A stretch of 63,669 nt of DNA, counting the filler, from Reclinomonas americana ATCC 50394 (taxonomy: Eukaryota): NCBI GenBank assembly GCA_048213135.1. It is 12 parts of 12 records of this genome, joined end to end, with 100 filler letters (N's around TTAATTAATTAA, not from the genome) between each part and the next. Parts side by side here need not be neighbours in the genome. Positions count along the whole stretch, not along the records: positions 1 to 4,771 come from AFZH01019994.1; positions 4,872 to 6,842 come from AFZH01019995.1; positions 6,943 to 9,183 come from AFZH01019996.1; positions 9,284 to 12,555 come from AFZH01019997.1; positions 12,656 to 14,962 come from AFZH01019998.1; positions 15,063 to 19,379 come from AFZH01019999.1; positions 19,480 to 27,600 come from AFZH01020000.1; positions 27,701 to 32,588 come from AFZH01020001.1; 4 more parts are not named here. One strand, 5' to 3'. The translations under genes were made by a program, and so were the position numbers. This document shows, in pieces, positions 1 through 63,464 of this stretch; positions within the stretch are counted from its first letter, which is position 1; each line of letters opens with the position of its first letter. The notes under the pieces are model-generated. The model was not told the origin of the DNA and ran no database searches. It was given only the letters and a program-made list of their open reading frames with translations.

Positions 1-790
1 AGCACCACTGAACGAGACGCTTCCACGACCCAGCCTGCTCCAGCAACTCCAGTGCGCACCCATCTATCGCACATAGACTGTACAGGAGAGCCGCAAACAG
101 TCCAACTGCTTGCGTCTTGATCTCGCCAGGCGCCGCCGCCGCCGCCGACCCGTACTGCGCATACTTTACGGGCACGAAGAGATCCAGCGCATGCATACAC
201 AGGCCGGCCAGACCCGACAGCGATCCGGCTTGTGTGCGACCCGATCGCTGCGCATAATGATGAATCAATATCGGGCATGTCGCTGCAGAGATAAGAACGC
301 GAATCGTGCGTCTCGTCGAGAAACACCAAGCGCACACAGACGTAGAGCGACCACAAACAAGAAGAGTGAAGAGAGAGGAATGACACGGTGGAATCACCGG
401 GGGAGCAGCGAGGAAGAATTCGACAAGCGAGGTGCGAGGGATCGATACCATCTTTCGGTGGATGGCGAGGATCTCAGCAGCGCACCAGAAGCAAGAGGAG
501 AGAGAGTGTGTGTGTGCGTGTGTGCGTGTGAGAAGAGAGAGAGAGAGTTAGAGAGAATGGAGACACGCAACTGCTTGATCGTACAGATCGTCAGCCTCGA
601 GCACCACACGCTGCATGAACTCGACATCGGCGACCATCAGAGAGATCACGCGCCATCGCGCTGCCTCTGCCGACTCGCATCGTTCCAGTGCCGTGCGAAG
701 ACGCAGGAGCAATGTATCCTTTCACATGTGTGAGTTGGAGAGAGGGAGAGGGAGAGAGACCATGACAGAGACACGAGCAACTCATACCAT
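1..790 (-). CDS. Hypothetical, probably alpha-helical protein; 5' part only, runs off the window start
   Basis: Manual splice model: ATG(790)|intron|DTLLLRLRTALERCES...DDLYDQA|GTTGCGT intron|ILAIHRKMVSIPRTSLVEFFLAAPR|intron|RTIRVLISAATCP...LLEQAGSWKRLVQWC. The frame is open to the window edge. No family recognised. Confidence 0.45.
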
Positions 791-1057
791 GGCAACACAC
801 TCGCGTCTCTCTTTCCTGCTGTGTGTGCGTATGCGCGCGGGTCTTGCTCTGCGTTCGTGTGGCGTCAATCGATTGAGAGCAAGTTCTCATACTGAACACA
901 CACGCGCACAGGCAGACCTTTCTCCTTCTTCTCCTTCGCAGTGCGCACAGAGCGTGCGTGTGGGTGTGTCTCACAGGAGGGAGAGACGCGCACACAGACA
1001 CGCACAGCAATGAGGTTCTGTTTGACGATCTGCTGCGATCAACAGATTCACGGCTGG

Positions 1058-2011
1058 ATGCTTCTCGTGAGTGCGCTCCCTCCCTCTTGCGCCTCTCTCT
1101 GCGCTCACTCACTCTCATGCACAGGTTCGCCTGTTGCAAGCACCACGCGTGCTGCTCGCTGGCGGCTCATGGTCAACTCTGACGCGACCGCTGTCCACAC
1201 AAGCCGACAACGCTGAAGGGTACTCTTCTCTCACTGCATGCCCTCTTACACACACACACACGCACTCACCCCTGCACACATGCACGTCAGGCAACGCGCG
1301 GCTCGTCGCGAGTACGCTCGCCAGTACTATCAACGCAATCGCGAACGCATCCTCGCCGCTCGCCGACGCACTCCTTCCTCTCCCGCTGCTGCTGCTGCTG
1401 CTGCGTCGTCTGCCGCCTCGTGGACTGCACCCGTGGCCACTCCACTGGCCGATAACCTCGAGTTGCCCGTGTCCATCAGTGCCGCAGCTGCGTCGTCGTT
1501 CACGGCCAAGGCGGTGGCTGCCATGCTGGAGGCCGAGGCCGCGGAGAAGGTGCTGGTGTGCGACTTGCGGCAGCGTGAGGCGCCGCTGTGCGATTACATG
1601 GTGATTGCTACGGGGCGCTCCATGGCTCACCTGCGTCACTTGTGCGACTATGTGGTGCAACAGGTCGGTGTTCCTTTCACTATCTCGCTCTCTCTCGCTC
1701 GCTCTGACTCGGCGTAGGGCAAGACCGCGGGAGTGGGCGCGGCGCCTGTGGAGGGGCGCAACAGTTCGTGGCTGGTGGCCGACTTTGACGACTTTATTGT
1801 GCATCTGATGACGGCGGAGGAGCGGGAGCGTGTGGCGTTGGAGAGTTTGTGGCTCAACCCTGTGGCGCCCCGAAAGACAGCCCGGAAGACGACGAGCGGT
1901 GGCGACGATGATGCAACTGGCGTGCGGAGACGAAAGAGGGAGCAGTCGGCGGAGTCGGCCTCTTCAACACGCCGACGAAGAGCAGCACCTCGCGCTGCTG
2001 GCGATCGATAG
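1058..2011 (+). CDS. Ribosomal silencing factor RsfS/Iojap family protein (MALSU1-like, probably mitochondrial)
   Basis: Spliced product contains VLVCDLR...CDYMVIATGRSMAHL and VEGRNSSWLVADFDDFIVHLMTAEERERVALESLW, matching the RsfS pattern (VIATG.S..H; W.L.D.GD.VVH...E.R..Y.LE.LW). The Arg/Leu/Ser-rich N-terminus resembles a presequence. Three introns. Confidence 0.85.
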
Positions 2012-2058: not shown

Positions 2059-4727
2059 TCATGAGGGGTTGTCGTTGGCCACCTCGCCCCGCATCACTCG
2101 CACCAGGTTGATGACGGACTGCACCGTGCACGTGACACAGAGGATGCTGCCTACGATGATGATGAGCCAGTCCACGGTCCACGCCCACCACGACAGACCG
2201 AATTGGTATTTGCCGTCGTTGACGGTGCGCTTGGTGTTGTTGGGTGAACGCATGATCTTCCAGTGGAAGAGTGCAGGGAACACAATGGCCAGCAGGACGC
2301 TGCCGAGACTGCCGACAACCCTGCATGTGTACCGTCACTTGCGCGTGAGCACGCGATTGCAGGAAGTCAACGCCTTGCAACGCAACGAGATGAATTCGCC
2401 AAAGTGTGGTATTCCGGTGGCAATAATGCCCGAGATGACCACGAGGAACAGCCGCCACAGCCATTGTTTCCACGAGATGCTGATTGTACAAGTGAGGCGA
2501 CCTCGGAGGTGGAATCGAGATGGCGATACACACACGAACCATTGCTTGAACTCGGTGGGGAACATGCGGTGCTCCGACAGCTCAATGACCGGCCACAATT
2601 GCAAGGGGTAGCTGAGTAGCAGACACACGGCGAGTGTGACCTTCACAAGGGCTATGGAGAGAAGTGAGTTCGTGTGGCAGCAGCAGCACGAGGTCTCACA
2701 AAAAATGCAACGCACATGCCGCCGACTGGTCAGCAATGTTCTCGAACACCAGCGCGCTGGTGTGCTCCTCGAATGCAAAGTACCCGCACAACCCAAACGC
2801 AGTGACCAAGATGGCCGTCGCTGCAAAGGCCACACTGAGCACCCACGAGAAGCGTTCGCGTCGGCGCAGATTTTGTTGAATCGGCAGCACGACCTGTGCG
2901 ACGGTGAGTGAACGCACAGACAGGCAAGCGCTCACATAAACTGAATGCCCACCGCGATTCTGCACGGAGAGGGTGATAGGGAAAGGGTAAGCACTTGGGA
3001 AGAGTGATATGAACAAAGGGGAATACAGGTACGCACCCCTCCATGGTGTACGCAAAGGTGCCGAGACCGACTGCAACCACGTTTCAGCGCAGGAACGGAT
3101 GAGGACACTGGTGCTGTGCGAGCGTACAGACCTGGGAATGACCACTGTGCCACAGAGGTGTGTTGAATGGTCTCGGTCGAGATGTGTCCGACATAGTTCC
3201 ACAGCACGACCACGTAGCCAATCAGAAACGCCACACTCGAAATGACACTGCAGACGACGACAGCGTCCATGTGAGTGATCCGATAGCGATGCACCGATGT
3301 GCCCTCCTGCGTACCTGAGTGGAGCAATGTACTTGAGACTCGGGGCGCAGCAGAGTGGATAGAGAATGAGAATGCAGATGCACACGCCGCCGAGGAACGA
3401 GATGCTTCCCGTCATGGACGACAGTGTCTCGGCTGCGTAGTGAGTTGTGAGCAACGCGATGAATGACCAACGCCTGTCTCGTCCCTCAACAAAGCAAGCA
3501 ACGCACCAATAAAGATCAAGTAGGCGCACAGGCAGCCGACTTGCGTGAACAGAACCATGGCGTCGACCTGCATGCACAAGTAAGTCTCGATCGGCGCACC
3601 TGTCATGCACCATTTCACAACGTACCGAGAGCGAGCCGATAGTGCCAAAAGCTGCGTACCCCACCTGTCCATCTGTGCGCACGTGTGTTTTTCGAGTCAA
3701 CATGACATCCGCCACTTCTCTGCCGCATGTGCGCATGTAACTCAACAATTCAGCACTTTGTGTCCCTGGTGATTTTGGTACGCCTCCTTGGCGATCACCA
3801 ACAGTCGGATGCATGAAAACGTGCACACAAACACCATGGACAGGAGAATCAAGCCGAGCTGCGCCGCCACGACAATGTAAGTCAGCAGATCTCGAGGAAA
3901 GCACACCATCATGATCCGGACACACACCACAGAGCCCGTCTGCCGAAATGCAAACGGCACCGCTGCAGAGGGCAAGAGACCACGTGAGGCCCACGGCATC
4001 GCCACACTCTCTCCCCCCCTTGACCACCCCCTCTCACGCAACACAAGATACCGCTGCCCACGAACGCCTTGAAGGTGTTGAGCAGAGCGGCCGCAACTCT
4101 GCATACAGCAGTAACAACACTTGTCAGCAGAATCCAGTGGTGGCATGCTCGCTGCTGCACACGTAACGAGGACTCGCCGGCACCACCACTACTGCCCGTG
4201 CGCCCGGTCGGTGACGAAACGCCGCCACCCTTGACCCGCGCACGCATGACACCATCCGAGGACAGCTCCAGCTCCTCTAGCTCGATCTGCTCATCCTCAT
4301 CGTCGTCGCCGCCGACATCGGTCGGTGCGGAACGCAGCATGAGAGAGGCCGACTCGACACCGTGCTTCGCCACTTGCCGTCGCAACTGTTGCGCCTGAGC
4401 ACGAGTGGGACCAGTGCCCACAACATCATCGTCATCGTCATCGTCATCGAACAAATCGTCCTGTGCTGCGGCCTCCGACAGCGGCGAGGAGGCAGACGAT
4501 CGTGGTCTCCGATCGGCGGTGGTGGACGAGAGCACAAGTGACGACGAGGAGGAGGCTGAGGAGATGGCAGAGGAGGACGACGACGAGAAGGGACGACGGC
4601 CGATCAGTGGCACCGACAGAATCGCCGGCGGCGGTGGCGCGAGTGAGGGAGAGGAGGCTAGCAGTGCTGAGCTCCGTGGCGAGAGGACGCCATCGTCGGA
4701 GGGTCGTGCAACGTGTGCGTACGACAT
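2059..4727 (-). CDS. Transmembrane amino acid transporter (Aa_trans/AAAP; SLC36/Avt3-like)
   Basis: Spliced motifs NTFKAFVGSGILSVPFAF, NYGQVGYAAFG, YTMEGIAVVLPI, FGLCGYFAF, SYPLQLWPV and IPHFGEFISVVGSLG. Long Ser/acidic N-terminal tail. Stop after ...ANDNPS at 2059. Confidence 0.9.
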
Positions 4728-4871: not shown

Positions 4872-7800
4872 CGGCCTTCAGCTGCTCGACGGTGATGTTG
4901 GGCGAGCCGCAAATGTGCGTCTCCATCTCCTCGGCGCTGAGCAGGCAGAACTCGTTGATCGGCAGCACAATGGCAATGCCCTGGCGCACAGCCGCCAGCT
5001 GCGGGTCTAGCTCCTTCAGGCGCGCCTCCAGCACCAGCGCGCGGAAGTGCTCCCAGTTCTCCGCCGTCACCGGCGTCGACGCACTGGCCTCGCCAATCAG
5101 GTCGATCTTGTGCACACCGTCCAAGCTGTGGATCGAGAACGTGGCCTCGGCATCTGTGCGACACACGCCTTCTTTCAGCACACTGCTACTCACTGCTCGA
5201 ACAAGAGGACAAGGGAATGTGACAAACCCTGCGCAGTCTCCAGCGACTCCAGCCACGGCATCGGATCCAACTCACGGTAGTCGGCCTCGGTGACTGTCTC
5301 GCCGCCCAGCTTCTTGAAGAAGAACTTGGGCAAGTCCAGCGGCAGCGGCGCGTGCGAGATGACAGCCATGCCCATGAGGAAGCCGAGGAACACAAAGTGT
5401 GCCATGCTCTCGTCGTCGGTCTTGGCCGGATTCACGATAAACTGACCCTTGACGCCGCCAATCGAGTACCGAGCACTCGGTGGCGGAATCAGCAAGTCGA
5501 ACGACTCCGACTGCAGATCCTGGCACATGTGGGAGATGCTCTCGCGGAACGGGCCACCGGCGTCCTGCGCTCGCTCGCCGCGAAGCTCGATGCGGTAGAT
5601 GCGGCTGTGGTTCTTGAAGTTGTACTCTGCCGTCTGCCACAGCAGCAGCTGCGGCTTCATCGCGTCCGAAATCTGCACAAACACCGGCTCTGGAAAACGC
5701 AAACGCAGACACACGCATACACCGAGTAAGTACGGAGGAGGGCAGTAACCCTCCAAAACCACACCCGACGGACGCAACTCGCACGGCCCTCGGAAGCGCC
5801 GATGCGGTCGACGGTAATGGCGATCGCTTCCGGACGCTTGCCACTGGCCTCCCGCAGCTGCAGCGCGCGAGCCAAGAGTCGCTTCTTGATGGACTCGAAA
5901 AGCAGGATCTTGAGCGTGCGGACAGCTCCAGACACCGACAGCACGTGCATCAGCGACTGCACGTCGATCTTGGTGCCGCGCAATTCGTCAAACGGACGGC
6001 GCGGCTGATCGGCCACCAAAGCTGCAGCAGCGCGCGACACATGCACGCATTAGCACGAAATCGCATGTGTGTGCGTGTCTGTCTGTCAGTCTCGCGCAAC
6101 TCATAAAGTCGGAGAACACCTTGTTGAGGTTCCACACGAGCTTGAAGCGAGCTGCACACTCGGCCGGAGTTCGGTTCTGCACACACACACACACACACGA
6201 CCTCAAGTCAGCTTGTGAAGTAGACAGAGAGAGCACTCTGGTGCACCGGCGCTCACCGGCAGCGCAGGGAACACGCCCTGCATCACGTGCGGCAACACAA
6301 AGCTCTGCTGGTTCTTGAGACGATCCTGATCGACCACGGCCTTCAGCATGTCGCGCAAGTCGTTGGAGATCTCTCGCGCACCTGCGCATGCACGACTCGC
6401 GAGTCAGCGATTCGAACGTATACGACAACATGCAGTGCTTTGGAAAACGCAACGACGATCGGCATCCGGCTCGGTGTCTTCGTCGGCCGGCGGCGGCAGG
6501 TGCTCACTCTGCGCAATCTCCATGACCAGGCGCACCAGTGCTGCACTCTCGTCCAGCGTCCACCGCCGCGAGCCCGGTGCATCGGTGCAAGCCAGTTCGT
6601 ATGGCTTGACACAGAGCGGTGGTGCACGACCGCTGTCGTCCGCACGGCGAGACTTGGAGTCGATCACGCGGAAGTTGTGGAAGTACCGAGCAGGGACCTG
6701 CGAGCGGCCCGACATGAAATTGCACTCGGCAAACAGCTCCAAAATGTGCAACGTCAACAGCGCTCGCGGGTGCCTGAATAGGAGGAAAGGCGACTTTAGT
6801 TTGAGTTTCGAGCGGGAAGACACGTTTCCTTGCGGCAAGTCGNNNNNNNNNNNNNNNNNNNNNNNNNNNNNNNNNNNNNNNNNNNNTTAATTAATTAANN
6901 NNNNNNNNNNNNNNNNNNNNNNNNNNNNNNNNNNNNNNNNNNGGATCCAGAGTGAGCTCCGTGGGCGACGAGCCGACAGCCGATGCACCAGTCGGCGAGC
7001 CAACGCTGCCCGAGCTCGGACCTGTTCGACACAACCCCAACACAGGTTGGTGAGTGTTCAAATAGCAATCGATCATCTGCTGTTCACCAACGACAAACCT
7101 GGACCGTCGGTGGCGGACCGCTCGACCTCCAAAAAGTCGCGAGGGACGAACGCTCCGTGGCCGGAGCGGCACTGACCGTTGAGATCGTTGCCGGTGCTGA
7201 AGCTCGAGTCGAACTCCACGCCAACAGAGTCGTCGCCAATGAAGCACACCACCACTGCAAAGTAATGTGAGTGGTCATGTCGCGCATGCAGACTTCTCCA
7301 ACACAGCAGGCATGCATGCATACCTCCACGAGCTCCGCTCGAGATACCCAAACCGTCCTGGTTGAGTACAACACGAGAGCCAATCACAACTTCGGCGGCA
7401 GCCGGACGCGCGGCCTCTGTGGCATCCGAGCCCAACACCTGCAGCTCATGTCGCAGCAGCGTGACGCCGCGGAACATGGGCGTCAGACCGTTGAGACTGG
7501 TGAGAAGTTGCGATGACTGTAGAAGGAGGGGATGTGTGTCAGCAAATGGAGTGACCGCCTCGCATCATCTTCTTGCGTACGCACCACATCCATCTCGACA
7601 CCAATGTGATCGCCATCAACAGCGCGCACAGCTGCACCAGCCCGTGTCAGATACAACAACGGATGAAGTGGTCAACATTGCTGACATGCTAAAAACTCAA
7701 CTGCCACGCTCGCCACGCAAAAACTCGACACTCGAGCCCGACACCACCACGCGTACTCCCGCGTACAACGAATCGCGTCTGCGTGTGTGCACACAGTGAG

Positions 7801-10800
7801 AATCCCATAAAGAGACCACAAATTTCGTACGACAACTACCGCACCGAGAGTCGACCGCATCCACCAGGCGGAGCGACGAGTACGCGTAGCTGCCCTTGAT
7901 GCGCTCAAAGTCGACTTGGACCAGGCACTCGCCCTCGCCCATGTACAGACGATTCTCCGTGTAGCCGGTCACCACACCGACGCCCAGGTGCGGTGCCGTG
8001 ATGCACTCCACACGCGCACCGATACGGAAGTGCAAGTGCGAGGTTGGGCGGTCGTTGCCACCGTATCCCACCGCATCACTGCCGTACATGCCGGCAAAGC
8101 CACGCGACATGTAGTACTCCATGCGACGCTCCTCTTGGGAGAGTTCGGGACCAGCCTCAGCGGCCACGTTGATGAGGAAGTACGTCACACCGTGATCGCC
8201 GCGAATGCGCACGCGGCGGAACGGTTGAATCACACTCTCCAAGTCTGCGACGGCAATGATGATTGTGTGCGTGTGAGCATCCACACAAAGAAAAGAAATC
8301 GGTGACGACGTCACAGTGGGAAATAAAACAAAACTTCGTGGACGCGCAGTCGGAGCACGGCGCGCAAACTGCAAGTCGGCCAAGTTGGCCACCGGCAACT
8401 CAATCGCTCCCTCGTTGTCCGTGTACGGCGGCGGCAGTGACGTGACAAACTTGAGCGTGCTCATCGGCACGCACAAGTGGCTGGCCTCGGCGTCGACATT
8501 ACCGCAGGCCACAGAGATCTTGCTCTCGCTCTGCTCCTCAATGAGGCGCACGGAGCACACAGTGTCTACAGATCGCGGAGAGTGAGTGAGCATGGCACAA
8601 AAAGGAGGAGCCTCTGTGTAAAACGCAACAGTCGCCAAGCATGGCGGAGAACCCGCTGGCGGTGGTGGTCACGGGCGACGGCGGAATGGTGGAACCAAGC
8701 CCAGTCTCGGCCACATCCATGCTGGACTCGGCGCAGTTGGAAGCCATCAATGCCGTCTGCTGTGCCAGCAGCTGGCTGCCGCTGCCGCTGCCACCGAGGG
8801 TGATGGTCGCGCCTGGGAATGGGCCAGCTGACGCTGTCGGGCCCACCGTAGACAGCACAAGACCGTACCCAGAGGACGAAGACGAAGACGCGATTGACGA
8901 CGGCACGTCGCATGCATCGTCGTACGCATCGCCACTGCCGTGGCCGTAGCTGCCAATGTCACTCGTACCAATGCCGCTGGAGGCATGCTGCGATCCACCC
9001 ATGCGGCTGGCGCGCTCTGCGCCATGGCCGAAGGCGACAGCAGAGTACTGACCTGAGCTGGCCTGTCCACTGCTGTTGTTGAGTGAGGACCGCCGAGCGA
9101 TAAAAGCCTCCAACTCGGCAAAGGATTCCTCGAAAATGGGCGGCAGCGACTCGGACGGACCGAGTACCACCGACGTTGGCGCANNNNNNNNNNNNNNNNN
9201 NNNNNNNNNNNNNNNNNNNNNNNNNNNTTAATTAATTAANNNNNNNNNNNNNNNNNNNNNNNNNNNNNNNNNNNNNNNNNNNNCCTCCTCTCCGCTGCTG
9301 CCCTCGGCAGCCGCCGTCATCGCGGCCACGGCAGCGGCAACAGTCGAAGCATTGGCTGCGGCGGCGGCGTCGGCGGCTGCGGCCTGCGACGACACGTCCA
9401 GCAGTCGGCAAATCATCTGCAGGCCACAGGCGTAGTAGTAGATGGACTGTTGGTTCTTGAGGGCGGTGTTGTAGAGGAACTCGGTGTCGGCGTGCGGCAT
9501 CTTCAAAAAGCGCATAAACTCGCCGACAAAGTGCGCACGACCAGCGTGAGCGCGACCATCGAGCGCGTCGTAGTGGTTGGGAGGCGACGACTGCGGCGTA
9601 TCGAACGGATTCGAGCCGCGATTGCCAGGCGTGGCGACCACATCCAACGACAGGGCGTGCACGGCAAATGTGCTGCGACGTGGGCAGCAATGGTGAGCGA
9701 AGGGTACAACTCGGCACGACAATGCGACAGTGACTCAACTGCGCCGAGTTGATCGAGTTGGAGCGCAACGAGCTGATCGGCGTCTCCTCGTGATCCAAAA
9801 AGTCAAACGACGACGACGCCCGTCGGTTATCGCCATGATTGTGTGTCTTTGGCACCGACTGTTCTCGCGGTGAGTGAGTGAGTGTGTGGACTGCATGCAT
9901 GCAAACCAGCACGACAGTACGCACGTTCTTGAAGGCAAACACCAAGTCGCAGCGATGCAAAAAGTCGACTGCGTACTCGCGCCACAGGTCGCTGATAAAG
10001 ACCTCGCGGCCTGACTCGGTCTTTTGGAACTCGGTGGCCTCCTCGCTGTTCTTGAATTCCTCGTAGGCGCGGTAAATGTTCTGCACAACGCGTCGCCGTC
10101 AGTCTCCATTTTGTGTCTTCTCTCGTCTCGCGCCGTCAGAGAAGAGAGAGCACGCAACGTTTTTCTGGAAGTGCAGCTGGCGGTACACGTTGCGGTGAAC
10201 ATCCATCCAAATGTCGTGCAGCTCGCGCGACACAATCACTTGGTTGTCGGTGAGACCTTGCTCCAGCTGCTCAGCGACGGCATACACCTCCTCGTCGATG
10301 CCGAATGCTTTCAGCACCACTGCCTCGGCGGCCAACATGCAGGCCTCGAAACCCTCGAGCAACGAATTTTGATTGTACAGGTTCTGTGTGCGGCACATGA
10401 AACAAGTCAGCAAGGCAAGACAAATACAAAAGCGATTAGTCTACAGCGAGGCGGACGCAACGGCAGGCAAGTGACGGCGAATCATGAATTCGGCAAACTT
10501 GTCCACTTGCTCGGCACGCCCGAGAGCCATCAGTGTGCTGCGATCGTTGTGGTCCAACACTCCAAAGGCGCGACTGAGCATGCGATGGGCAGTCTGCAAT
10601 CACAACCGCTGTGTGTGAGCACACTGAACTATCTTCGGCACACCACAACCGCAGTTTTGCCACGCAACCATCTTCTCCAGCTGGCGTTGAAGCAGGCCGC
10701 GAATGATCATCTCTCCAGTGACATAGTCGATTGGCTCGCGAGCAGAGAACACGTCGCGCATCGACATGGCAAAGTACGACGGCGAGCCGAGCGGAACCGC

Positions 10801-13800
10801 AGACGACGTGTTCCACGCCACACCGACGCTGCTGGACAAAATGTTGCCACCAAACGGCGGTCCGTTCGACGGCGTCGTGATGGTCAACTGCGACGGCAAC
10901 TGCGCGGCGAGAAGCGTACTCGGCTTCTCCGTGTTGGTGTCTTCCAGGCCACCGGATCCCAACATTCCGCTGAAAAAGTCGACAGCCTGTTTGCGTCGCT
11001 CCTCGTGCAGCTCGTCCACTGCTGCCGGCGAGTCAGCAGCAGAAAAAAGAGAAAGAAGAACAATGTGTGCATCCGCAACGTTCATCGTCTTCGCCGGCCA
11101 TTGACGACGACGCGGGTGGTGGCGACAACAAGGCCGACGCAGGGTTGGAGGTGCCGAGCAACAGCACAGATGGCGCCGACAGTACGCAGCATTCAACCGC
11201 GGTAATGGTGTCGACTGGATTCTCCGTCGCCACAATGCCTTGGCGGGAACGACGCGGAGTCCAACGACGGCGCGGTAGATTGCTGGTAATGTCGCCACCG
11301 GCGCACTGCAGCTTGAAGATGCGCTCGTAAAAGGTCACCAACGGCTGCCCGACGACACTCCAATAGCGCAGAGTTTCTGGCGTCACGTCGCTCGAGTTGG
11401 CGGCATACTGTGCAAGATTGCCGGCCAAGTCGGCCAGTGACGGCACCGTGGCCAGCGAGTACAGCGCGAAACCATCGACCACCGGCGACACAATGCCAAA
11501 CAGGCAAATGGCGTACTGTTTGGCGGGCAGCAAGTTTAGTGCACACTGGTACTAGTTTTTTCGCAACACTGAGCAAAACGAGAGTCGCAACCTCAGTGCT
11601 CGAGCATTGTGCGAGTTCGCGGTCCACCGACAGCAGGTACTGCACGAGGATGGCCGCGTACTCGGAAAGGTTGCCAACAAAGAAGGCGGCAGCGGCCAGC
11701 TCCACCAACTCCTCCAACAACATCTGCTGGAACTCAGTCAGCGATTCCGGATCCTCGGCTTGCAACCGCGCCAGGTGCAGCATGAACGAAAAGGCGGTCG
11801 GATCCTTGGCTGAGCAGGCCACAATGTCCTGCGAGAATGAACACCGTGGTGAGATCATTCACGCACATCCTAATCGACGAGTGATGAAAGAAAAGAGGCG
11901 ACGCACGGTGAACATAATCTTGCGCAGTGTTTGCGGGCTGTTGAGCGCCAAGCGCACGGCCTTGAGCACATCGGCCTTTTCTTGCATTGTTGCAGACTCG
12001 GCGCAAGCAACAGTCAACATTTCCACAAACTTGGCCGGCGTGTACGTCAGCGGGAACAGCGCCAGGCGAGTTTGCTGCATGGACTCATACAGTGCCTGCA
12101 TTGCAACAGTGAGCATCGCCACAATTGCAGCGTGACAAAAGACAGCAGGCAGAGGGACCTTCCACTTGGCACGGCCAGCCAGCAGTGTGTCGAGTGCCTC
12201 GAGTGCCAGCATCAAGTCACCCGACGCATCCTGCATGCCCGAGTCGACATAATCCTCGACAGCTGCAGTCGACGATGCGTTTGTGTTTGCGCTGTCGTCG
12301 CTGAGGAGTCGGCGCACAATCTCCAAGCATTCGCTGCAAATGACCTCAAAGTACACGTCTGTGCGGAGCCAAAAAGGTCAGTCCAGTGTCACCTTCAAGA
12401 CAGAAAGACAAGACAAACAAGAGTATGTGCACAAACCCTCCAGTCCATGTCGCCGACGATAGTCAATCGTGTGCAACAGCAGTGAGGCCACGAACGAGGC
12501 CACGCCAGGAGCGTTGATGAGATTCTACAATACGCATGGGGAGGGTCAGCTTCGTNNNNNNNNNNNNNNNNNNNNNNNNNNNNNNNNNNNNNNNNNNNNT
12601 TAATTAATTAANNNNNNNNNNNNNNNNNNNNNNNNNNNNNNNNNNNNNNNNNNNNGTAAACTTTGAGAACCACAGTCACCAAACCTCTACAGTGCGTGCA
12701 CGCTCCATGGAGAGGCTGTCCCGGTTGATGGTGACAATGTGGCACCGCTGCGTGGTGCAGTGAATCTCCAGCGTCAACTTGCCCAGCTCGTCGAACACGA
12801 TGCGTGTGCGCAGCACTGGACCCACGTCAAAGGCAAACTCCTGCACCGCACAACAGCACGTGTGAGTGTTTCTCCGTGGCATTCAGCTCTGACACGAGAA
12901 CGCAACCGTCGAGGCACTTGGCCGCAGCACAACTCCATCGACGTTTTGCACCGACAGGGTCGGTGTCGGCAACACAAAGGTGCTGATGCGTACACGTCCG
13001 TGCGACGGTGACACCTCAGCGACCACGATGCCGCCAGTGGGCATCGGGGCCCACGACTCCAGTGCATTGTCGTACACGGCAGCACTCTCGGCATTGCTCG
13101 ACGAGTGGCGCCGGTGGGAGTGGTGATGAGAGTGGTGGTGGTGATGGTGGTGCGAATGCTGGTGATACCCAGACATGTCGAGTGCAAACGTGGATTCGGC
13201 TGCGGCTGCGTGCGGCAGGAACGGATTGTGAGGCATCACGTGGCAGGCGACACGCCGACCGGACGATGATGAGGTGGACGACGACGATGATGGAGTGCCA
13301 CTGGTTCCTGTGCTGCTGGAGCTGCGGCGGCTCGGCGGCAACTCCACCACGGCACAGAGACGATTGTCGACCTCCATGAGAGCGAGTGCGCGGCGAGCTG
13401 CAACATGTGCGCGAGTGAGTGTCTTTCACATGCCGATTTCGTGCGATTCACCAGGAAGCAGCGCTACGCACCGGCAAACGGCAACGTAATCGTCTGCACG
13501 CCCTGCCACGACGACTCCTCGCTGACGCGCAGGAGCATGGCACCATCGGCTCCACTGGCCAGGAAATCAACGTGCGCCGGTGAGTCGCCAGCGTGAGCCA
13601 CCAGGCTCTCGGCGAACTCGTCAGGCAACACATGGACGGCTGGCATCACGCACACAAGTAAGTTACGTACACGAGTAAACGCACGGCGGCATTTTGGTGG
13701 GACGCACCAATGGGCACATGCTCCGTCCAGTCCATGTCTTGCAGCGAGTTTGTGGTAAAGTGGTTCACCACCGGGCGAGTGCTGGCGAGCGCGCTGGCGG

Positions 13801-18518: not shown

Positions 18519-19317
18519 ATGGCGACAAGACCACGCACCGATCTCTTTATGCAGTACCGAGCGTTGCGTTGCCTCTGCCTCTGCCTCATCTCATTGTGCA
18601 CACACTCTCTGTGTGCGTTCGTGCTCTGGTGATGGCCATGGCCACCACTTTTACAGAAGCACTCCTGCGTGTGTGTGACTTCCCTCTGCTCTCTTTTACA
18701 CACAATCGTCTCTCGTTGTGTGTGTATATACGTGTGCATGTGTCGCTGTCATATGTCATCTTCTGTGTCACACACAGACACACAGAACGCGTGTCGTGTA
18801 TTTCAGCACTCTCACTTTCCTCTTACACACACACAGTGCGGCACTCACGCCAGCTGGTACGGGCATTGAGATGACAGGTGGTGGCAAGGGTGCGGGTGGA
18901 CGAGTGCGTTTCACTGGTCGCGGTGGCGACACGGATGGTCTGTTGGAGGCGGATGCGGCAGAGCGCGGCATGCGTGGTGTGCGCTCGGATAGTGGCGAGC
19001 CAGTGTATGTGCCGGGCTTCATGCGCATGCGTGAGGCCATTCAGGAGGGCATGAAGGACATCCAAACACAGAGTTGCGACAGGCTGCTCTTCGTTTTCTG
19101 TCCTCATTGTTTTCGTGCGCCAACGATGTGCTTTTTGCACGTGCAGTGCGGAGGCTGAAGGACCTGTACAAGCAGCAGCTGCAGCCGCAGTTTGATGCGT
19201 CGGACACGGAGCAGCAGATTGACATTGTGACACGCGAGATCAAGACGCTGTTCCGCGAGTGCGAGGCGAATGTCAAACTGATTTGCACGGAGCAGGAGGG
19301 CGAGGTGTTGGAGACAG
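18519..19317 (+). CDS. STX16: Syntaxin-16/Tlg2/SYP4-type Qa-SNARE, 5' part (3' end lost at linker)
   Basis: N-peptide MATRPRTDLFMQYR; Habc helices IQEGMKDIQTQMRRLKDLYKQQLQPQFDASDTEQQIDIVTREIKTLFRECEANVKLI. Confidence 0.8.
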
Positions 19318-33500: not shown

Positions 33501-34471
33501 CACACGCAACAGTGGTCAACAAGACGACGCGTGAGAAGACACACACAGGTGCACGCAAGCGCAACATCAGTCATCTTCAAGTGTGTGCTGTAAAACGCTC
33601 GTGATCGACGCGCCGCCGCAATGGTTCCGATCGACAGCCACAACTTCCAGCCCCAAAACACCACAAATCCCAGTTCGAGTACGGCCACATACCACTGTGC
33701 CGCCTCCATGCTGTTCCCACGCACACACACACATGATGAGTGTGGACAACAACTCGGAGTCTAATCTGACGATTCTTCAAAGATCCTCCTCTGCTTTCGT
33801 GTGCGTGTGTGCTTTGCTGCGATCTCTCTCTGCGTGCGCGCGTGTGTGTGTGTAACGACTACAGTGCGTGTGAGCGGCAAACCTCCTGAACGGATGCTCG
33901 TGGATTTTACGCGCGTGTCGGAAACACTCGAGCGTGTCACACCGATTCAGCGCATCCCAGTCGACAAAGATGACCAGGAACGTGGTGAATGTGATCAAGA
34001 AGGCAATCGCTCTGTGTAAGAGAGAGCGCGCGCGCGTAAGTGAGTGAAACCGCACATCATTACAGTGTGAGTTGACGCAACAGCGACGACAGCACTTCGC
34101 TGAGCACGATACACCAGTAGCCCTTTCTCACATAGTACTGATACAACTAGGAAGACGAAGAAGACGACGATTCAAAGTGAGCATATGTAATCGGCGAAGA
34201 GAGAAGGAACAGACGTTACCTCCACAAAGAAATCATCGACATCGCCGGCGACCAATGGCGCCAATCGCTCATGTTCTGCCACCAGTGGAGCCGCGGCGGC
34301 GGCAGCAGAAGAAGAGGACGACGACGAGCGCACAGCTGCCAACTCCACATCGGCACCACTGGAGAAGAGCGAGGCGCCGGGCTCGACACCAAACAAACGC
34401 CGTGACGACGAGGACGACGACGACGCTGGCATAGAGCTGTCCTCGTGTTGAGGAAGGCGCACGTACGCCAT
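30519..34471 (-). CDS. ATG9: Autophagy-related protein 9 (lipid scramblase), multi-exon, crossing the linker at 32589
   Basis: DVDDFFVELYQYYVRKG, DIASRIMRQQNYLIGLVNK, LTRSLEYNL, GARTWSPLARWKFREFNELPHVFEQRM, THYVPKQW, VEGLGYVCSFSTF and GKMEKSFINFLANHPQW are hallmark ATG9 motifs. Confidence 0.95.
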
Positions 34472-50682: not shown

Positions 50683-50719
<37 letters not shown>

Positions 50720-53700
50720 TGGCGATGGAGTGACTAATTGTCTTCTGTTGTGCCAGCCATTCCTCCTGTGCAAATCACACCGTCGACTCTGAATGTGCCA
50801 ACAACTGGCTTGTCGTCGGGTGCATCGGTCGGCACCGTGTCTGCCACATCTGGCACTGGTTTCACCTTCACGCTGGCGGCAGCGAGTGGCAGCAATGACA
50901 ATGCAGTCTTCACCATAGCGACGCCGAGCACTGGTGCAGTGACACTGGCGTCGGCATTCACGTGGCCACAAGCAGTGACGAGTCGCACACTGGAGGTGGT
51001 GGTATCGGACGGCACGTACTCGGCGACACAATCGCTGACCATCACGGTGACCAACGCATCGGCGTCGGGCACGCCGCCATCGAATCTCCAGTTCTCAGTC
51101 ACCTCAATTCTGGTTCCGCCACCAAGTGGACTGGCCATCAATGCCAGCGTCGGCACGGTAACCGCCGATGGCGACACACCGCTGTCGTTCAGTCTCGCCG
51201 CGGCCAGTGGCAGCAACGACAACGCACAGTTCAAGTTTGCGAGTGCATCGTCGGGCGCGGTGTCGCTGGCGGCAGCCATTTCGTGGCCGACTGCACTCAC
51301 GTCTCTGCGACTGGAGGTGGTGGTGTCGAATGGCGCCGGATCGGCATCCAAGGTGTTCACGCTGACGGTGTCTAATTCGTGCCCGGGCAACTGCAGCAGC
51401 CACGGCACGTGTGCGGCAGCGACGGGAGTGTGCACATGCACTGGAGGATACTTGTCGTCTGCATGCGGTGAGTGGGAGATGGAGAAGAAGGGGGCGTGGA
51501 GATCGATGACTAATTGTCTTTTGTTGTGGCAGCGATTCCTCCCGCGCAAATCACACCGTCGACACTGAATGTGCCGACTGCCGGCCTGTCATCGGGTGCA
51601 TCGGTGGGCACAGTGTCTGCCACAGCAGGCACTGGTTTCACATTCACGCTGGCGGCAGCGAGTGGCAGCAACAACAATGCACTGTTCACAATTGCCACAC
51701 CCAGTACTGGCGCTGTTACGTTGGCGTCGGCATTCACGTGGCCGCAGGCAGTGACGAATCGCACGCTGGAGGTGGTGGTATCGGATGGCACGTACTCGGC
51801 GACACAGTCGCTGACGATCACGGTGACGAACTCGTGTCCGGCCAACTGCAGCAGCCACGGCACGTGCGCTGCGGCGACGGGAGCGTGTACGTGCACTGGA
51901 GGATATTTGTCGTCTGCGTGCGGTGAGTGGGAGATGGAGTAGAAGGCGATGTGGAGGTGGAGTGACTTACCTCGCTTTCTTTGGTTCTGCCAGCCATTCC
52001 TCCCGCACAAATCACACCGTCGACGCTGAATGTGCCAACAACTGGCCTGTCGTCGGGAGCATCGGTGGGCACGGTTTCAGTGACTGCCGGCAGTGGTTTC
52101 ACCTTCACGCTGGCGGCGGCGACTGGCAGCAACAACAATTCACTGTTCACAATTGCCACACCCAGTACTGGCGCTGTTACGTTGGCGTCGGCGTTCACTT
52201 GGCCACAAGCAGTGACGAGTCGCACGCTGGAGGTGGTGGTGTCAGATGGCACTTACTCGGCGACACAATTACTGACCATTACGGTGACGAACTCGTGTCC
52301 GAGCAACTGCAGTGGCCATGGCACGTGTACGGTATCAACTGGAGTGTGCGCGTGCACAACGGGATACGCCCTGCCATCTTGCAGTTTCGCACAAACTACA
52401 AGCTTTGTTGTTTTCTTGCGTAGCATTACTCATTCTCCTTGACACTGCACAGCCAACATTGCGCCGACCAACTTGTCGCTCAGCGCCTCGACCATCACGA
52501 TTCCAACAATTGGCCGGGGCATTGGGTTCTTGGTGGGGACGGTCTCTGCCGTGGATGCGCAGTCAATCACCTACTCGTTGGCCACGCCGGGCGTTACAAA
52601 CAACAACAGCTTGTTCGCGGTCAATGCTTCCACCGGAGCCCTCACCCTCGCGCAGGCCTTGACGTGGCCGTACACTGCTTTGACGTCGCTGGTGGTGGCC
52701 TTTGTTGCCACTGATAGCGGCTCGCCGCCTGCCTCAAGTAGCCAGTCGGTGTCGCTCACCGTCTCCAACGCATGCACGCCGCCGTGTGCGGTATGCGATT
52801 CGTCCACGGGCACCTGCCTGTCCATGTGCACTCAGGCGAATGTCACTGGTCCCACTTGCAGTGGTGAGCAACAGAATCGAGGTCTCACGCGCACTTCCAT
52901 GGCTCCTCACATCGTCGCATGTGCGCAGATTGTGTGCAAGACTACTATCCTGCTCCCTCCATCGGCGGCCAGTGCACTGTGCTGTTGCGTCCGCATTTGT
53001 TGCCAGATCATTCACACAACAGCTGACTCTGCGTTGTGTCTTGAACAGTTGCACGCGTGCGGCAACGTGCAACAACCACGGCAGCTGTTCGTCGTATGGC
53101 TTGTGGTGCGTATCTCGATGCGCACACACCTCCTTGTCGTAAAAGAGTTGCTCATTCAGGGATTAGTGTCTGCGACACGGGATTCTCCGGCGATGCCTGT
53201 GAATGTTGCGACGGTCCCCGACCCTCTCACTTGTTTTCGCGTGCTCACTGATGTTGACAGCATTCGCAATTTCGGTAACGCCGGTCAACATTCCACTCTC
53301 GCAAGCCTCCACTGTCGTCGTCAGTGGCTCCGGCCTACTCTCGGACATGATTGTGTCGGTGGTGACCCTTAGCACTGCCGGCTGCTCCGCAGACACAGTG
53401 GCCGCCGGAGCGTCGGGCCTCGCCCTCAATTCGGTGAGCCCTGTAACGTCGGGTGGCTCAACCACACTGGTTCTGTCGATCACTGCCACGGAGCCCGCCA
53501 GTCTTCTGGTGTGCGTCCAGTACGCTTCGAGTGGCGCCTTTGTCTTTACGTCCAATCCAGCTGCTGCTCGCCTGACGGCCGGCATTCGTTGCGTGTCAAT
53601 TTGTGAGGGCCATTGTCGTGATGAAGTTCTCAACATGTCGCGCACACCGCAGCCTCCATCGCTGGATCCACCGGTCTGGCAGCGGCTGGCGAGTCATCAT

Positions 53701-60430: not shown

Positions 60431-60716
60431 TTGCATACAGCCTTCTCTCTTTCTTGCTAGGGCACAGCAACCAACTCGTTCCGCTCACTGTTCTCCTCAA
60501 CACGTAAACAGAAACTCACCGTGTGAGGAGCGAGCGCCCGCTCTCTCTCTCCCTCCCCCTCCCCTCTCTTCCCCCTTCCCTCTCCCCCTTCTCTCTCCCG
60601 CACAATCACATCGCTGCAGCTGTTTGTCACTTTTACACGTAAAGCGATGCGCGACAACAAAAAGCAGCACACAGAACACAAGAGAGGATTGGTAAACCTG
60701 GGGACGACCTCGCCCC

Positions 60717-63464
60717 TCAGTAAATCTCGCAAAAGTCGGGCATGACCGGACCGGCAGCGATTCCGCGGTTGGCCATGCGGCAACGCTGGGCGGCGAGACG
60801 CGGCAGAGCGGCGCCAGCACTGCGTGACCAGTTAGCGTCACAATCAAAGAGTCAACGACTTGCCGCCTCCTGACAACGCAACTCAGTGACCGTCTTGGCC
60901 GACCACAGGCGCTCGGACGCGGCGCATGCGCGAGGCCACACACGGCCGTCAAAGTTGACCTGATCCACCTGCTCGCTCCACATGCTGTGCGTGTACAGAC
61001 AGACAGTCAACACCACGCTTCAGCGCCTGCCAGCCTCACCCATGAAAAGAGACGCAACGCGGCCTCTCCACCCAGCACCAGAGCCTCCTGCGCCGGGGTC
61101 AGGCGGCCCGGCTGGATCGGCTCGTTGGCGTAGAAATCCTTCCACGTGTCCTCCCACTCGTAGTGCGTGCTCTTGCCGGGCACCTGCTTGTCGAGGTACC
61201 AGCCGGCGGCGAGGATGCCGCGGTCTGCAACGAACAAAGAGAGAGGGAGATGAGTTGAGCAGCAGCAAGCAGGAAAAGAGGGCTTGTCGAGAAGACGCAA
61301 CGGCCGGCCTGCACAATGTTGTAGAGCATGTCTTGCGAAATCCACGCCTCGACAATCGTGTCGGGGTCCATCTGCACACCGGCCTCGAACACCTCCTGCC
61401 ACACGACGTTGGTCTTGCCGTTGGCCTTGAGCAGCGGGGACATGTTGTTCTCAAAGTAGTTCATCAGCTTGTCGTAGTTGCCTGCGTAAGAAGGGGAAAG
61501 AGTGAGGCGAAAGGGAAACAAAGGGAAAGGGATTGCAAAGGGAAAGGGAGAGGAGACAAGAGGGATAGTGAAGAAAATAGACAAGCCGGGACGTCGAGTG
61601 TGCAAGCAAAACTGATAGAAAGGTAGAGTGCACAGAAAACATGCAGATGGTCCACCGTTTGTAATGAGAGCGACGGGTGAATAGTGCTCTCGGAGAGGCG
61701 AGACGAGACAAGGAGAGTTGCACACAGAGTGGGTAAAATAGGACGTTGAATGGACGGAAATCAGACGAAGCAACTGCTCCGACAGCAGAGGAAAGAGGGC
61801 AGTCGAGACGTGGAAGAAGTCCAACGGTTGTAGTGAAGCGACGGGTGAGTAGCCTGCTTTCGGAAACGGGAGAAATGCGAGTAGAGAGTAGCGTAGCAGA
61901 TACGGCAGCACAGGATGTAAATGAGCGAGTAACGCAGCAGCAGCGTACGCTCTCCGACAGCAGGTCAAAAAGTGCAAAATACGTACGGCAGCCGTCGCGA
62001 GATCGACAGAACGACATTGGGAAGCAGCATGCTCTCGAAACGCGAGACAGCGAACTGAGAGTTGTGTAGCAGCGCGATCTCGAAACGGAAAAACAACGGG
62101 AGACACAGAGGGCGGAAAGGCTCCCCGATAGCGAGACAGCGAATTGAGAGTTGCGTAGCAGCGCGATCTCGAAAGGAAAAACAACGGGAGACACAGAGAG
62201 CGGAAAGGCTCACCGATAGCGAGACAGCGAATTGAGAGTTGCGTAGCAGCGCGATCTCGAACGGAAAAACAACGGGAGACACAGAGGGCGGAAAGGTTCC
62301 CCGATAGCGAGACAGCGAATTGAGAGTTGTGTAGCAGCGCGATCTCGAAAGGAAAACCAACGGGAGACACAGAGGGCGGAAGGGCTCCCCGATAGCGAGA
62401 CAGCGAATTGAGAGTTGTGTAGCACCGCGATCTCGAAAGGAAAAACAATGGGAGCCACAGAGGGCGGAAAGGCTCATCGATAGCGAGAGGCGTGCACGTG
62501 CAACGCAAGAACATAAGAGAAACAGAATAACGGGCGACATAAGACGAAGAAAACAAGCCCGAAGTGAGCAGAGAACAAGATCACGACTGATCACTCCTCT
62601 GCAAGAATTCACGCACACAGACCTGCTGCCCAACCTGCCACACTGCGGGATTGATATCCTTCTCCCCTTCCACCCTTCTCCCCTCCAACCCTTCTCCCCT
62701 CCCAACCTTCTCCCCACCCCCACCCTTCTCCCCTCGCATCCTTACCCCATCCCCATCCTTCTCCCTTCTCCCCACCCATCATCCGTCTCCCCTTCCAACC
62801 CTTCTCCCCACCCCAACCCTTCCCCTTTACGCAACTTCCCCACCCCTTCTGCTGCATGAACGACACAATCGACTGATCCTGCGCCCAGCACTCGTACACC
62901 ACCTCGTCGCCGCCAGTGTGCACATACTTGTCGGTGAAGAGCGGCAGGGCGTCGTTGAAAAAGTTGCGCAAGAAATCGTAGGTGCCGCTCAGCGCCGGAT
63001 TCAGGGGGATGTTGTTGACGTTGGCCGACCAGCTCGGGCACTTGGCGGTGAGGTACGAGTACGCCTGGCCCCAGCTGTACGAGTGGCCGGGCATGTCGAA
63101 CTCGGGCAGCACACGCACGCCGCGGTCCTTGGCGTACGACACCAGCGTCTGCACGTCCTGGTGCGAGTACGTGCAGTTGGAGCACCACACCAGGGCCTGC
63201 GAGAGGAGCGGGTACGGCGTCGACTGGAACGGGAAGGACTGCGCGTCGGTGATGTGCCAGTGCATGGTGTTGAACTTGTTGTAGGCCAGCGCGTCGACAA
63301 TGTGCAGCAGCTGCTGGAAGGGGTAAAAGTGGCGCGAGGTGTCCACCAGCATGCCACGCCACGGGAAGCGCGGGGTGTCGGAGATGCTGAGGGGGACGGA
63401 GCCGATGGTGTAGGTGCGGGAGGGGCGGTCGTAGGTGATGAGCTGGGAGAAGGTTTCCAGGGCG
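60717..63464 (-). CDS. Beta-N-acetylhexosaminidase, glycoside hydrolase family 20 (HexA/HexB-like); 5' end outside the window
   Basis: ALETFSQL, DTPRFPWRGMLVDTSRHF, NKFNTMHWHITDAQSFP, RGVRVLPEFDMPGH, catalytic HTGGDEV, WYLD, GGEAAMWSE, RVWPRACAASERLWS, RCRMANRGI. Confidence 0.97.
62030..62490. repeat. Tandem repeat, 88-bp unit, ~5 copies, inside the 1.35-kb hexosaminidase intron
   Basis: GCGAGACAGCG recurs at about 62042, 62131, 62219, 62307 and 62395, with a partial copy at 62483. Confidence 0.93.

Follow-up and report, generated by a model that had tools for sequence, protein, structure and literature searches.

A one-base-shifted GTTGCGT/GTTGAGT donor as the largest single 5' splice site class in a 64-kb window of Reclinomonas americana

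Donors of the GTGCGT/GTGAGT form are typical of GC-rich genomes, e.g. those of green algae, and the ordinary donors of Reclinomonas americana (class B) have, like them, G at both -1 and +5 as well as T at +6. In contrast to such genomes, a second and commoner reading of the same word, cut one base upstream, is found here (class A). Rare 5' splice sites of shifted register are reportedly known from a human study of shifted base-pairing to U1. As in class A, GU stands at +1/+2 of the cut, the usual G-U of +5/+6 lies at +6/+7 and U+3 replaces U+2, all U1 pairs being moved by one position; the mammalian GUUAAGU-type sites have the same layout as GUUGAGU and GUUGCGU of this genome. The pairing differs, with C here where A would pair and a computed energy on textbook U1 of -1.4 kcal/mol vs -7.6 kcal/mol for the human examples. 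The frequency differs as well: according to PMC4856993, all validated human non-canonical registers together make up about 1.5% of 201,541 sites, a rare exception, whereas class A is the largest single donor class here (32 introns vs 23 of class B, of 121). The same source includes a bulge +3 (or +2) register among human 5' splice sites, in which GU and the downstream G-U are likewise set apart by one intronic nucleotide more. There, exon -1 still pairs with C9, while the long class here is without the G at -1 of class B.

Motif abundance and donor classes

The whole sample was one 64-kb window of the genome, i.e. the entire analysed stretch of 63,669 nucleotides including filler. In the sequence-only reading of this window, introns with a shifted donor were claimed to be a major class, over 30 in number and not paralogous, and a GTTGCGT frequency at donors no higher than in background sequence was named beforehand as speaking against it. 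GTTGCGT was found in 53 copies on both strands, where 16.59 +/- 3.97 are expected from 100 dinucleotide-preserving shuffles, none of which reached 53 (maximum 29). With a single-base change the excess is gone (both strands summed: GTAGCGT 2, GTCGCGT 17, GTGGCGT 15, ATTGCGT 7, CTTGCGT 13, TTTGCGT 10). Relative to predicted gene spans, 41 of the 53 copies run in the sense and 6 in the antisense direction, 6 having no assignment, and 33 (62%) are followed 40-130 nt downstream by a branch-like motif and then YAG, compared with 2899 (33%) of all 8673 GT 7-mers.

When a donor-blind gene finder was given GT..AG and codon usage only, the hexamer that it chose most often as a donor was GTTGCG, with 14 of 97 introns at first and 22 of 113 afterwards. 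Both classes were counted from our own gene models, class A being defined by GTTGCG/GTTGAG-type donors and class B by GTGCGT/GTGAG donors. The 121 modelled introns comprise 32 of class A, 23 of class B and 66 of neither class, several of the last being clearly wrong merges of neighbouring genes, as the models are noisy. Class A is therefore not only a major class but the largest in the window, and retention would break the frame or add a stop for 31 of its 32 introns. The number of over 30 was reproduced (n=32, including one paralogous pair, 37404/41678), and the class is real with regard to the excess over shuffles, sense bias, donor-blind gene finding and homologue profiles, which confirms the observation of a one-base-shifted donor class.

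The motif is present on the expected strand at all 28 individual sites proposed by the sequence-only reading (20 GTTGCGT, 4 GTTGCG[A/C], 2 GTTGAGT, 2 GTTTCG), with G at -1 in none. GTAACGT, named there in the text, occurs at none of the listed coordinates. Seventeen of the 28 are donors in the purpose-built gene finder and 13 passed a flank-coding test (threshold: 95th percentile of 1200 random GT sites), the union being 18. Neither test backs the other 10, some of which are outside confident gene models: 571, 3746, 21565 and 21911 on the minus strand and 18563, 52384, 52984, 53205, 56861 and 57685 on the plus strand. Another 15 sites beyond the list were supplied by the gene finder, giving the class A total of 32.

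Individual introns and their junctions

The cut position was set by the GT-AG rule together with homology, and the GTTGCGT donor was ranked first by homologue profiles at 5 of 6 junctions tested, i.e. at all four of the GH20 hexosaminidase gene and at one of two in the second HECT gene, which places the motif at exon ends. The GH20 introns (minus strand, all GTTGCGT, all listed) are 61482..62835 (1354 nt, top of 7 GT/GC-AG alternatives with the homologue HMM), 61225..61301 (77 nt, top of 17, rank 1/56 with free boundaries), 60985..61058 (74 nt, top of 31) and 60820..60882 (63 nt, top of 6, rank 1/57 with free boundaries). Around the first of them the Pfam GH20 match stops at 62840 with positions 1-191 and picks up near 61479 with positions 193-260. 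In the second HECT gene the unlisted in-frame intron 19636..19698 (minus, GTTGCGT, 63 nt) is top of 25 alternatives; 16.8 bits are lost on its retention and homologues match in two stretches, skipping the intron. The other HECT junction, at 20297 (unlisted, 20225..20297, minus, GTTGCGT, 73 nt, a gene-finder donor), was ranked 4/12 by homology, 2.3 bits under the top. With free boundaries, homology does not resolve the cut at the level of single bases: the protein is unchanged at two of the four GH20 junctions when both ends are moved by +1, and the loss at the other two is only 1.4-1.8 bits, while at the first GH20 junction the GT-AG model is outscored by 18 non-GT-AG variants, by up to 3.3 bits.

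The remaining listed class A introns on the minus strand, all GTTGCGT, are gene-finder donors at 2309..2386 (78 nt, amino-acid transporter gene, flank test passed), 3963..4042 (80 nt, flank test failed), 5690..5778 (89 nt, large HECT gene), 23491..23555 (65 nt, flank test passed) and 34012..34081 (70 nt), and were found by the donor-blind pass at 8566..8629 (64 nt, flank test passed) and 10081..10158 (78 nt, flank score 14.5 vs a null 95th percentile of 5.6). On the plus strand the gene finder supports 19073..19146 (GTTGCGA, 74 nt, flank score 15.6), 27134..27197 (GTTGCGT, 64 nt, CBM20 gene), 36139..36241 (GTTGCGT, 103 nt) and 38841..38906 (GTTGAGT, 66 nt), the last three having passed the flank test, and together with the donor-blind pass 28716..28788 (GTTGCGT, acceptor uncertain: 58, 67 or 73 nt) and 53588..53693 (GTTGCGT, 106 nt). 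The GTTGCGT intron 27782..27847 (plus, 66 nt) is probable, as it passed the flank test and is skipped by the gene finder, which jumps a masked stretch.

All unlisted introns are supported by the gene finder. Those found also by the donor-blind pass lie on the minus strand at 6022..6100 (GTTGCGC, 79 nt), 9673..9739 (GTTGAGT, 67 nt), 10384..10461 (GTTGCGT, 78 nt), 11022..11079 (GTTGCGG, 58 nt) and 12841..12906 (GTTGCGT, 66 nt); the last of these and 10594..10668 (minus, GTTGCGT, 75 nt) are the two class A introns with G at -1. At 6382..6453 (minus, GTTGCGT, 72 nt) the donor-blind pass took a GT 3 nt upstream. The other minus-strand introns are 7632..7701 (GTTGAGT, 70 nt) and 33496..33565 (GTTGCGC, 70 nt, upstream part of the ATG9 gene). 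On the plus strand, all GTTGCGT, are the histidine-kinase introns 37404..37480 (copy 1) and 41678..41754 (copy 2), paralogues of 77 nt each with 98% identity, 44648..44732 (85 nt), and 46960..47020 (61 nt), located directly past the HATPase_c domain of copy 3 as seen from the Pfam match.

Class B is represented for comparison by G|GTGAGA in the ATG9 gene (32955..33022, minus, 68 nt), where the Pfam ATG9 match breaks, with profile position 265 last, at base 33023, and position 264 again near 32960; by G|GTGCGT in the CBM20 gene (26171..26245, plus, 75 nt) and GTGCGT with C at -1 (11829..11906, minus, 78 nt), both from the donor-blind pass; and by G|GTGCGT at 38405..38470 (plus, 66 nt, paralogue 46825), in-frame within HATPase_c, over which the Pfam match takes 102 residues for 76 profile positions.

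Signals of the two classes

The short GT-AG introns of the window have a median of about 74 nt, a CTCAC/CTGAC branch site and a CAG acceptor. CTCAC is found in 14/32 class A and 11/23 class B introns, CTGAC in 6/32 and 5/23, CAG in 28/32 vs 21/23, and the median lengths are 73.5 and 75 nt; since branch site, acceptor and length are alike, both classes point to the same machinery at the 3' side. On the 5' side class A is the counterpart of GTGCGT/GTGAGT, its conserved G-T lying one base deeper in the intron, as claimed in the sequence-only reading: T at +7, which is not part of the class definition, is present in 28/32 class A introns, its counterpart being T at +6 in 16/23 of class B, and C and A alternate at the equivalent position in both classes, with C over A by 29 to 3 in class A.

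The last exon base separates the classes. G at -1 is present in 2/32 class A introns vs 17/23 of class B, in 1/23 vs 16/19 in one donor-blind pass (Fisher p 9e-8) and in 1/16 vs 8/11 in the other. Since G precedes GTTG infrequently throughout the window (98/692, 14%), this is to be read for class A as an absent preference for G at -1 and not as proven avoidance. The -1 contrast between the ordinary and the long donor class is a new observation, and text searches of the literature found no report of a GTTGCGT-type donor.

Reading of the donor by U1

It is probable that class A comprises ordinary short GT-AG spliceosomal introns which share with class B one seven-base 5' word, G-(G/T)-T-G-(C/A)-G-T, read by U1 in a shifted register. 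The -1 contrast suggests that in either class the cut precedes the GT that the word happens to contain. With G as the second base the sole GT stands at bases 2-3 and the cut would fall after the first G, as in textbook G|GTGCGT; with T as the second base GT stands at bases 1-2 and the cut would precede the first G (|GTTGCGT). U1 snRNA would bind this word alike in both classes, and we infer that in the long class its pairing, seen from the cut, is moved by one base towards the intron, through G+1/C9, U+3/A7, G+6/C4 and U+7/A3, the cut itself being presumably set by later steps (U5/U6/Prp8), which require GU. This suggests a splicing machinery set one position off the textbook arrangement on many introns.

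The alternatives range from a different cut to a different U1. That the motif is a matter of chance, or of gene models built round it, is barely credible: 10 of 28 listed sites are without independent support and the models are noisy, but no shuffle of 100 reaches the observed count, sense copies outnumber antisense ones by 41 to 6, GTTGCG was the top donor when the finder was given just GT..AG and codon usage, and homology backs GTTGCGT at 5 of 6 junctions. Equally remote is an inherited 5' end, copied with a mobile introner element or with duplicated genes. Introner families with common ends are present in several protists and algae, and an identical 5' end on many short introns is what class A shares with them; nevertheless, it is without a common body or flanking duplication and its short introns vary from 58 to 106 nt. 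On comparing the bodies of the short introns (31 of class A, 21 of class B), strong matches were confined to histidine-kinase paralogues (37404/41678 and class B sets), the rest being 12-18-nt low-complexity, and target-site duplication was not detected (longest common substring of donor and acceptor windows, mean 4.58 vs 4.46 in mismatched pairs), so the class is derived neither from paralogues, as the sequence-only reading had it, nor from mobile elements, the histidine-kinase copies excepted. It is also very unlikely that the cut lies elsewhere, either with GTT exonic before a GC-AG intron (GTT|GCGT) or after the first G (G|TTGCGT), the acceptor then also moving on by one base. The GTT|GCGT reading never breaks the frame and comes second at all four GH20 junctions and HECT 19698, but it scores 1.7, 5.3, 6.4, 5.6 and 6.1 bits worse at these five, and GTT is invariant across the intron phases of class A (10 phase 0, 14 phase 1, 8 phase 2) and hence is not a codon. 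G|TTGCGT is compatible with the free-boundary homology scores; it would, however, leave CAG one base inside an intron end whose last base shows no preference (T 8, G 9, A 8, C 7) and place U at intron position 1, contrary to the near-universal G+1.

More weight, though still improbable, is given to a bulged U at +2/+3 in the textbook register (G+1/C8, exon -1/C9), for GTTGCGT is GTGCGT plus one T and such registers are experimentally proven in human cells (PMC4856993). A bulge preserves the C9/exon -1 pairing, so that a preference for G at -1 like that of class B would be expected, against the 2/32 vs 17/23 observed and only 1/23 vs 16/19 in the donor-blind pass. The -1 contrast instead suggests that the intron's own first G replaces the last G of the exon, i.e. 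a shifted register; moreover, a bulged +3 base would be free to be non-T (a bulge at +2 still requires T at +3), yet T alone is enriched, which fits pairing of U+3 with an A of U1. Of the "shifted or bulged" pairing put forward in the sequence-only reading, the shifted form is thus favoured over the bulged one, its interpretation as a whole being partly supported.

The shifted register by itself leaves the energetics to be explained. With the textbook U1 end (ACUUACCU) the computed shifted duplex of GUUGCGU has the mentioned -1.4 kcal/mol, while G|GUGCGU reaches -7.9 to -9.3 kcal/mol; if U1 is unchanged, a move of the register is therefore not enough to explain why this class is the commonest, and pairing this weak makes an altered U1 in this organism plausible, one of the variants (U1/U6 snRNA or U1-associated proteins) that the sequence-only reading proposed. 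In its strongest form, a lineage-specific U1 or second U1 paralogue whose 5' end could pair with GUUGCGU along its whole length (for example A in place of C8 and G/C in place of the two pseudouridines), this is unlikely; the long class would then be canonical for that U1 and GTGCGT would be served via another U1 or a mismatch. The U1 5' end is one of the most conserved RNA sequences and GTGCGT in GC-rich algae is served by unchanged U1, both of which speak against it, and the snRNA gene search of the window gave no match at gathering threshold or at E<=1. Speculatively, the shifted register could be combined with a U1 whose position 5, facing the conserved C, is G, and with a U6 that accepts a cut lying one base further from the G-T with which it pairs. 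The excess of C over A in class A is the reverse of what pairing with pseudouridine predicts, and hypothetical U1 ends are computed to pair far better with GUUGCGU, at -7.3 to -9.3 kcal/mol with G at position 5 and at -13.6 kcal/mol with A at position 8 in addition.

Frequency of the long donor in the window

The DNA of the window has a GC content of about 58% and is gene-dense, with many short introns per gene; (GT)n/(CA)n microsatellites are plentiful throughout it and often intronic, and GTGTGTG (205 copies) is the top GT 7-mer. A sequence-only reading had proposed that introns beginning with a long donor (GTTGCGT/GTTGAGT) form a major class beside those with the ordinary donor (GTGCGT/GTGAGT), and had listed 28 intron starts. 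Below, class A comprises introns with GTTGCG or GTTGAGT and class B those with GTGCGT or GTGAG. The motif is present at all 28 on the strand claimed (GTTGCGT 20, GTTGCG[A/C] 4, GTTGAGT 2, GTTTCG 2). On both strands together GTTGCGT occurs 53 times, against 16.6 +/- 4.0 copies in dinucleotide-preserving shuffles, none of which (0/100, maximum 29) reached 53. The excess is specific for the word, as the count falls to 2-17 when base 3 or base 1 is swapped. A branch-like motif followed by YAG is found 40-130 nt downstream of 33 of the 53 copies (62%), compared with 2899 of 8673 of all GT 7-mers (33%). Relative to the predicted genes 41 copies are sense and 6 antisense, the other 6 having no confident gene around them, and 25 of the 53 serve as donors in the gene models. 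A chance origin of the excess is excluded by the shuffle test together with the bias of 41 sense to 6 antisense copies.

The gene finder was a self-written dynamic programming procedure with codon usage, GT..AG and an intron penalty as inputs, where codon usage was seeded with 1549 codons lying under Pfam matches. In the donor-blind pass, made without any donor motif, GTTGCG was the top donor hexamer (14/97 introns). After a 3' rule of YAG plus branch site was added it reached 22 of 113 introns, against 10 for GTGCGT, and self-training on donor 7-mers gave GTTGCG in 29 of 121 introns, plus three with GTTGAG. Noise in the models is considerable, with 66 of 121 introns assignable to neither class and false merges of neighbouring genes behind several of the long introns. 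The proposal of a major class is supported by 32 class A and 23 class B introns, counted in self-made models of one 64-kb window, and the proportions are provisional. When retained, 31 of the 32 class A introns break the frame or bring a stop, and fifteen of them are additional to those listed earlier.

As for the individual starts proposed in the sequence-only reading, the finder recovers 17 of 28 and a stricter flank-coding test (threshold set by the 95th percentile among 1200 GT sites drawn at random) is passed by 13, which gives a union of 18. The remaining ten (571, 3746, 18563, 21565, 21911, 52384, 52984, 53205, 56861 and 57685) have support from neither test and are not refuted. The flank-coding test needs 25 open codons on each side, is blind to short exons and long introns, and returned "no short intron model" at 8 of the 28 sites.

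Intron type and homology at the junctions

Class A introns start with GT in 32/32 cases, as imposed by the finder, and end with YAG in 31/32; a YTNAY branch motif is present in 30/32, with a median of 23 nt from the branch A to the acceptor. The 3' halves of the two classes are alike, for class A and class B respectively, in the branch motifs CTCAC (14/32 and 11/23) and CTGAC (6/32 and 5/23), in the CAG acceptor (28/32 and 21/23) and in the median intron length (73.5 and 75 nt). By their ends, their branch site and the homologous protein restored on their removal, class A introns appear to fit the U2-type GT-AG kind.

Homology was followed in detail in a GH20 hexosaminidase gene located at 60.8-63.7 kb (60717-63669) on the minus strand, which holds four of the listed introns. 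Against a profile built from 60 homologues the spliced model reaches 600 bits; among these homologues Andalucia godoyi is best (59%), Stygiella incarcerata next (55%) and amoebozoans come after, so that the nearest relatives of this protein are, as far as sequence similarity tells, jakobids; the protein collection searched contains none from the organism of the window itself. At 4/4 junctions the GTTGCGT donor with its acceptor is top among the in-frame GT/GC-AG alternatives at most 60 nt away (7, 17, 31 and 6 of them), and at the first intron Pfam coordinates are concordant. With free boundaries homology places the GH20 cuts less finely than to the single base, and the exact cut is therefore set by the GT-AG rule. 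The in-frame 63-nt intron at 19698, in a divergent HECT gene, is top among 25 alternatives, its retention costing 16.8 bits, and the junction at 20297 ranks 4/12, 2.3 bits under the top. A metagenome scan with a GH20 exon gave no close relative (80 loci kept, all of 35-42% identity), a homologue search for ATG9 at 1e-22 gave no match, and the class B check in that gene used Pfam coordinates only. The first GH20 intron (61482-62835, minus) is 1354 nt long, about 18 times the usual length, starts with a G-rich purine repeat and contains GTTGCGT twice in antisense orientation (62150, 62238).

Several other readings of these introns were weighed. U12-type introns have the donor consensus RTATCCTT and a TCCTTAAC-like branch site, and neither the donor nor the branch motif of class A resembles them. 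A GC-AG reading, with the cut placed as GTT^GCGT (caret, cut), is the runner-up at each of five well-resolved junctions, yet it scores 1.7-6.4 bits lower at 5/5, and GTT is invariant across all three intron phases. If the cut fell after the first G, the conserved CAG would lie one base inside the intron, to be followed by a random last base. Origin from introners or paralogues would be expected to leave similarity of intron bodies and/or target-site duplication. For this window such an origin is excluded, as bodies are shared only among histidine-kinase paralogues and no flanking duplication is found, which agrees with the earlier statement that the class is not paralogous.

One donor word in two forms and its proposed pairing with U1

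A G at -1 precedes 17 of 23 class B donors and only 2 of 32 in class A; the donor-blind runs gave 16/19 class B vs 1/23 class A (Fisher p 9e-8) and 8/11 vs 1/16, and among the listed sites it was 0/28. Because G before GTTG is rare window-wide (14%), class A is to be described as having no preference for G at -1, and not as proven to avoid it. The earlier idea that the long donor is the ordinary one with one extra base is well reflected in the sites, T at +7 in 28/32 class A introns mirroring T at +6 in 16/23 of class B. At +3 T alone is enriched, and G+6/T+7 is found in 26 of 112 donor-blind introns vs 6.4% of all GT sites. Class B G^GTG(C/A)GT and class A ^GTTG(C/A)GT are thus one seven-base word in which the second base differs, and each form is apparently cut before whichever GT is present. 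At the variable position class A uses C over A, 29 to 3, though A would pair. Minor donors are G^GTACGC (minus strand; 3314, 20050 and 30561, each of the three with G at -1) and GTAACG(T), GTTACGT and GTTTCGT (24476, 34219 and 4167 minus; 42341 plus), with C-G-T at +5 to +7; GTAACGT would fit textbook U1 with a bulged C.

The sequence-only reading had named shifted or bulged U1 pairing together, and the base at -1 bears on which of the two applies. In the bulged form U1 would keep the textbook register with one U looped out (+2/+3), so that C9 would still pair with exon -1 and a preference for G there should persist. Class A shows no such preference, and the bulge is an unlikely description of it. 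The probable reading is the register shifted one base into the intron, in which G+1 would replace exon -1; the layout of class A is what such a register predicts. G+1 would lie opposite C9, U+3 opposite A7, G+6 opposite C4 and U+7 opposite A3, and the position of the cut would be chosen afterwards by the catalytic spliceosome.

With the textbook U1 5' end (ACUUACCU) the computed pairing energies are -1.4 kcal/mol for GUUGCGU, -5.8 for GUUGAGU, -7.9 to -9.3 for G^GUGCGU and -12.3 for G^GUGAGU, and therefore the commonest donor is the weakest partner of textbook U1. Were position 5 of U1 a G, computation predicts a shifted class A duplex of -7.3 kcal/mol, and with A at position 8 in addition one of -13.6 kcal/mol. 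It is conceivable, though on balance doubtful, that this lineage has a rebuilt code for its 5' splice sites, with an altered U1 5' end (a G facing the conserved C, perhaps A for C8), a cut uncoupled from the U1 register genome-wide and a donor of +1 to +7 as the main class. The usual G-U partner of the U6 ACAGAGA box would, in class A, lie one base farther from the cut, and U6 would need to accommodate this additional base separating its ACAGAGA pairing from the scissile bond. Rfam searches of the window found no snRNA, with 0 matches at gathering scores and just 10 weak miRNA/sRNA-type matches at E<=1.

Few signals of eukaryotic gene expression are, to our knowledge, as conserved as the consensus of the 5' splice site and the 5' end of U1, and we know of non-canonical U1 registers solely as rare exceptions, proven site by site in human cells. 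Published text on the donor motif, on jakobids and Andalucia and on unusual protist 5' splice sites or U1 reports no such donor; logos in figures and supplements are beyond a text search. In the part of the human work considered (PMC4856993), shifted and bulged registers are proven and rare, validated non-canonical cases making about 1.5% of 201,541 sites, whereas class A is the leading donor class in the window. What is found here would be a known rare pairing mode turned leading donor class. Andalucia godoyi, the one published jakobid genome, is described as intron-poor, its 864 genes carrying 134 introns, every one of them GT-AG, in contrast to the many short introns of the window; the passages considered give no donor consensus (PMC7050145).

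If the rebuilt code were true, nature would have provided, on the scale of a whole genome, an example of change in the U1 5' end, which is otherwise near-invariant in eukaryotes. A genome in which the shifted donor is the commonest would offer a natural system for cut-site choice independent of U1 pairing and a test of the co-evolution of U1/U6 with their targets. There is also a warning for annotation, since donor models with one register and independent positions would blur two sharp classes and may put exon ends a few bases off.

Other loci of the window

An RluA-type pseudouridine synthase is encoded by a single exon at 34551-35558 (plus). Its named matches are all bacterial, the first-listed with 33% identity over 96% of the query and others with 41-54% over about half, and no match in the protein collection exceeds about 54% identity; the gene may be organelle-targeted or laterally acquired. 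Between 4772 and 58696 there are 22 runs of 44 N in eleven pairs, with 12 bases between the members of a pair, which look like deliberate masking and break several gene models (ATG9, a CBM20 gene, HECT). The region 50200-53700 carries repeated EGF-like/cadherin units with recurring exon ends 'actcgt^GTCC' and a branch-like 'gactaattgtc'; gene models of opposite strands are in conflict there, and of the four donors listed in it (52384, 52984, 53205 and 53588) only 53588 is supported. Three hybrid histidine-kinase genes stand in tandem at 35900-47700 (plus), with HATPase_c at 37965-38855, 42363-42851 and 46496-47086; a search of a histidine-kinase ORF against PDB sequences gave no match at 1e-5. 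The introns of these copies are 90-98% identical, which suggests that the genes were duplicated recently or have undergone gene conversion, and at corresponding positions the donor class is unchanged from copy to copy.
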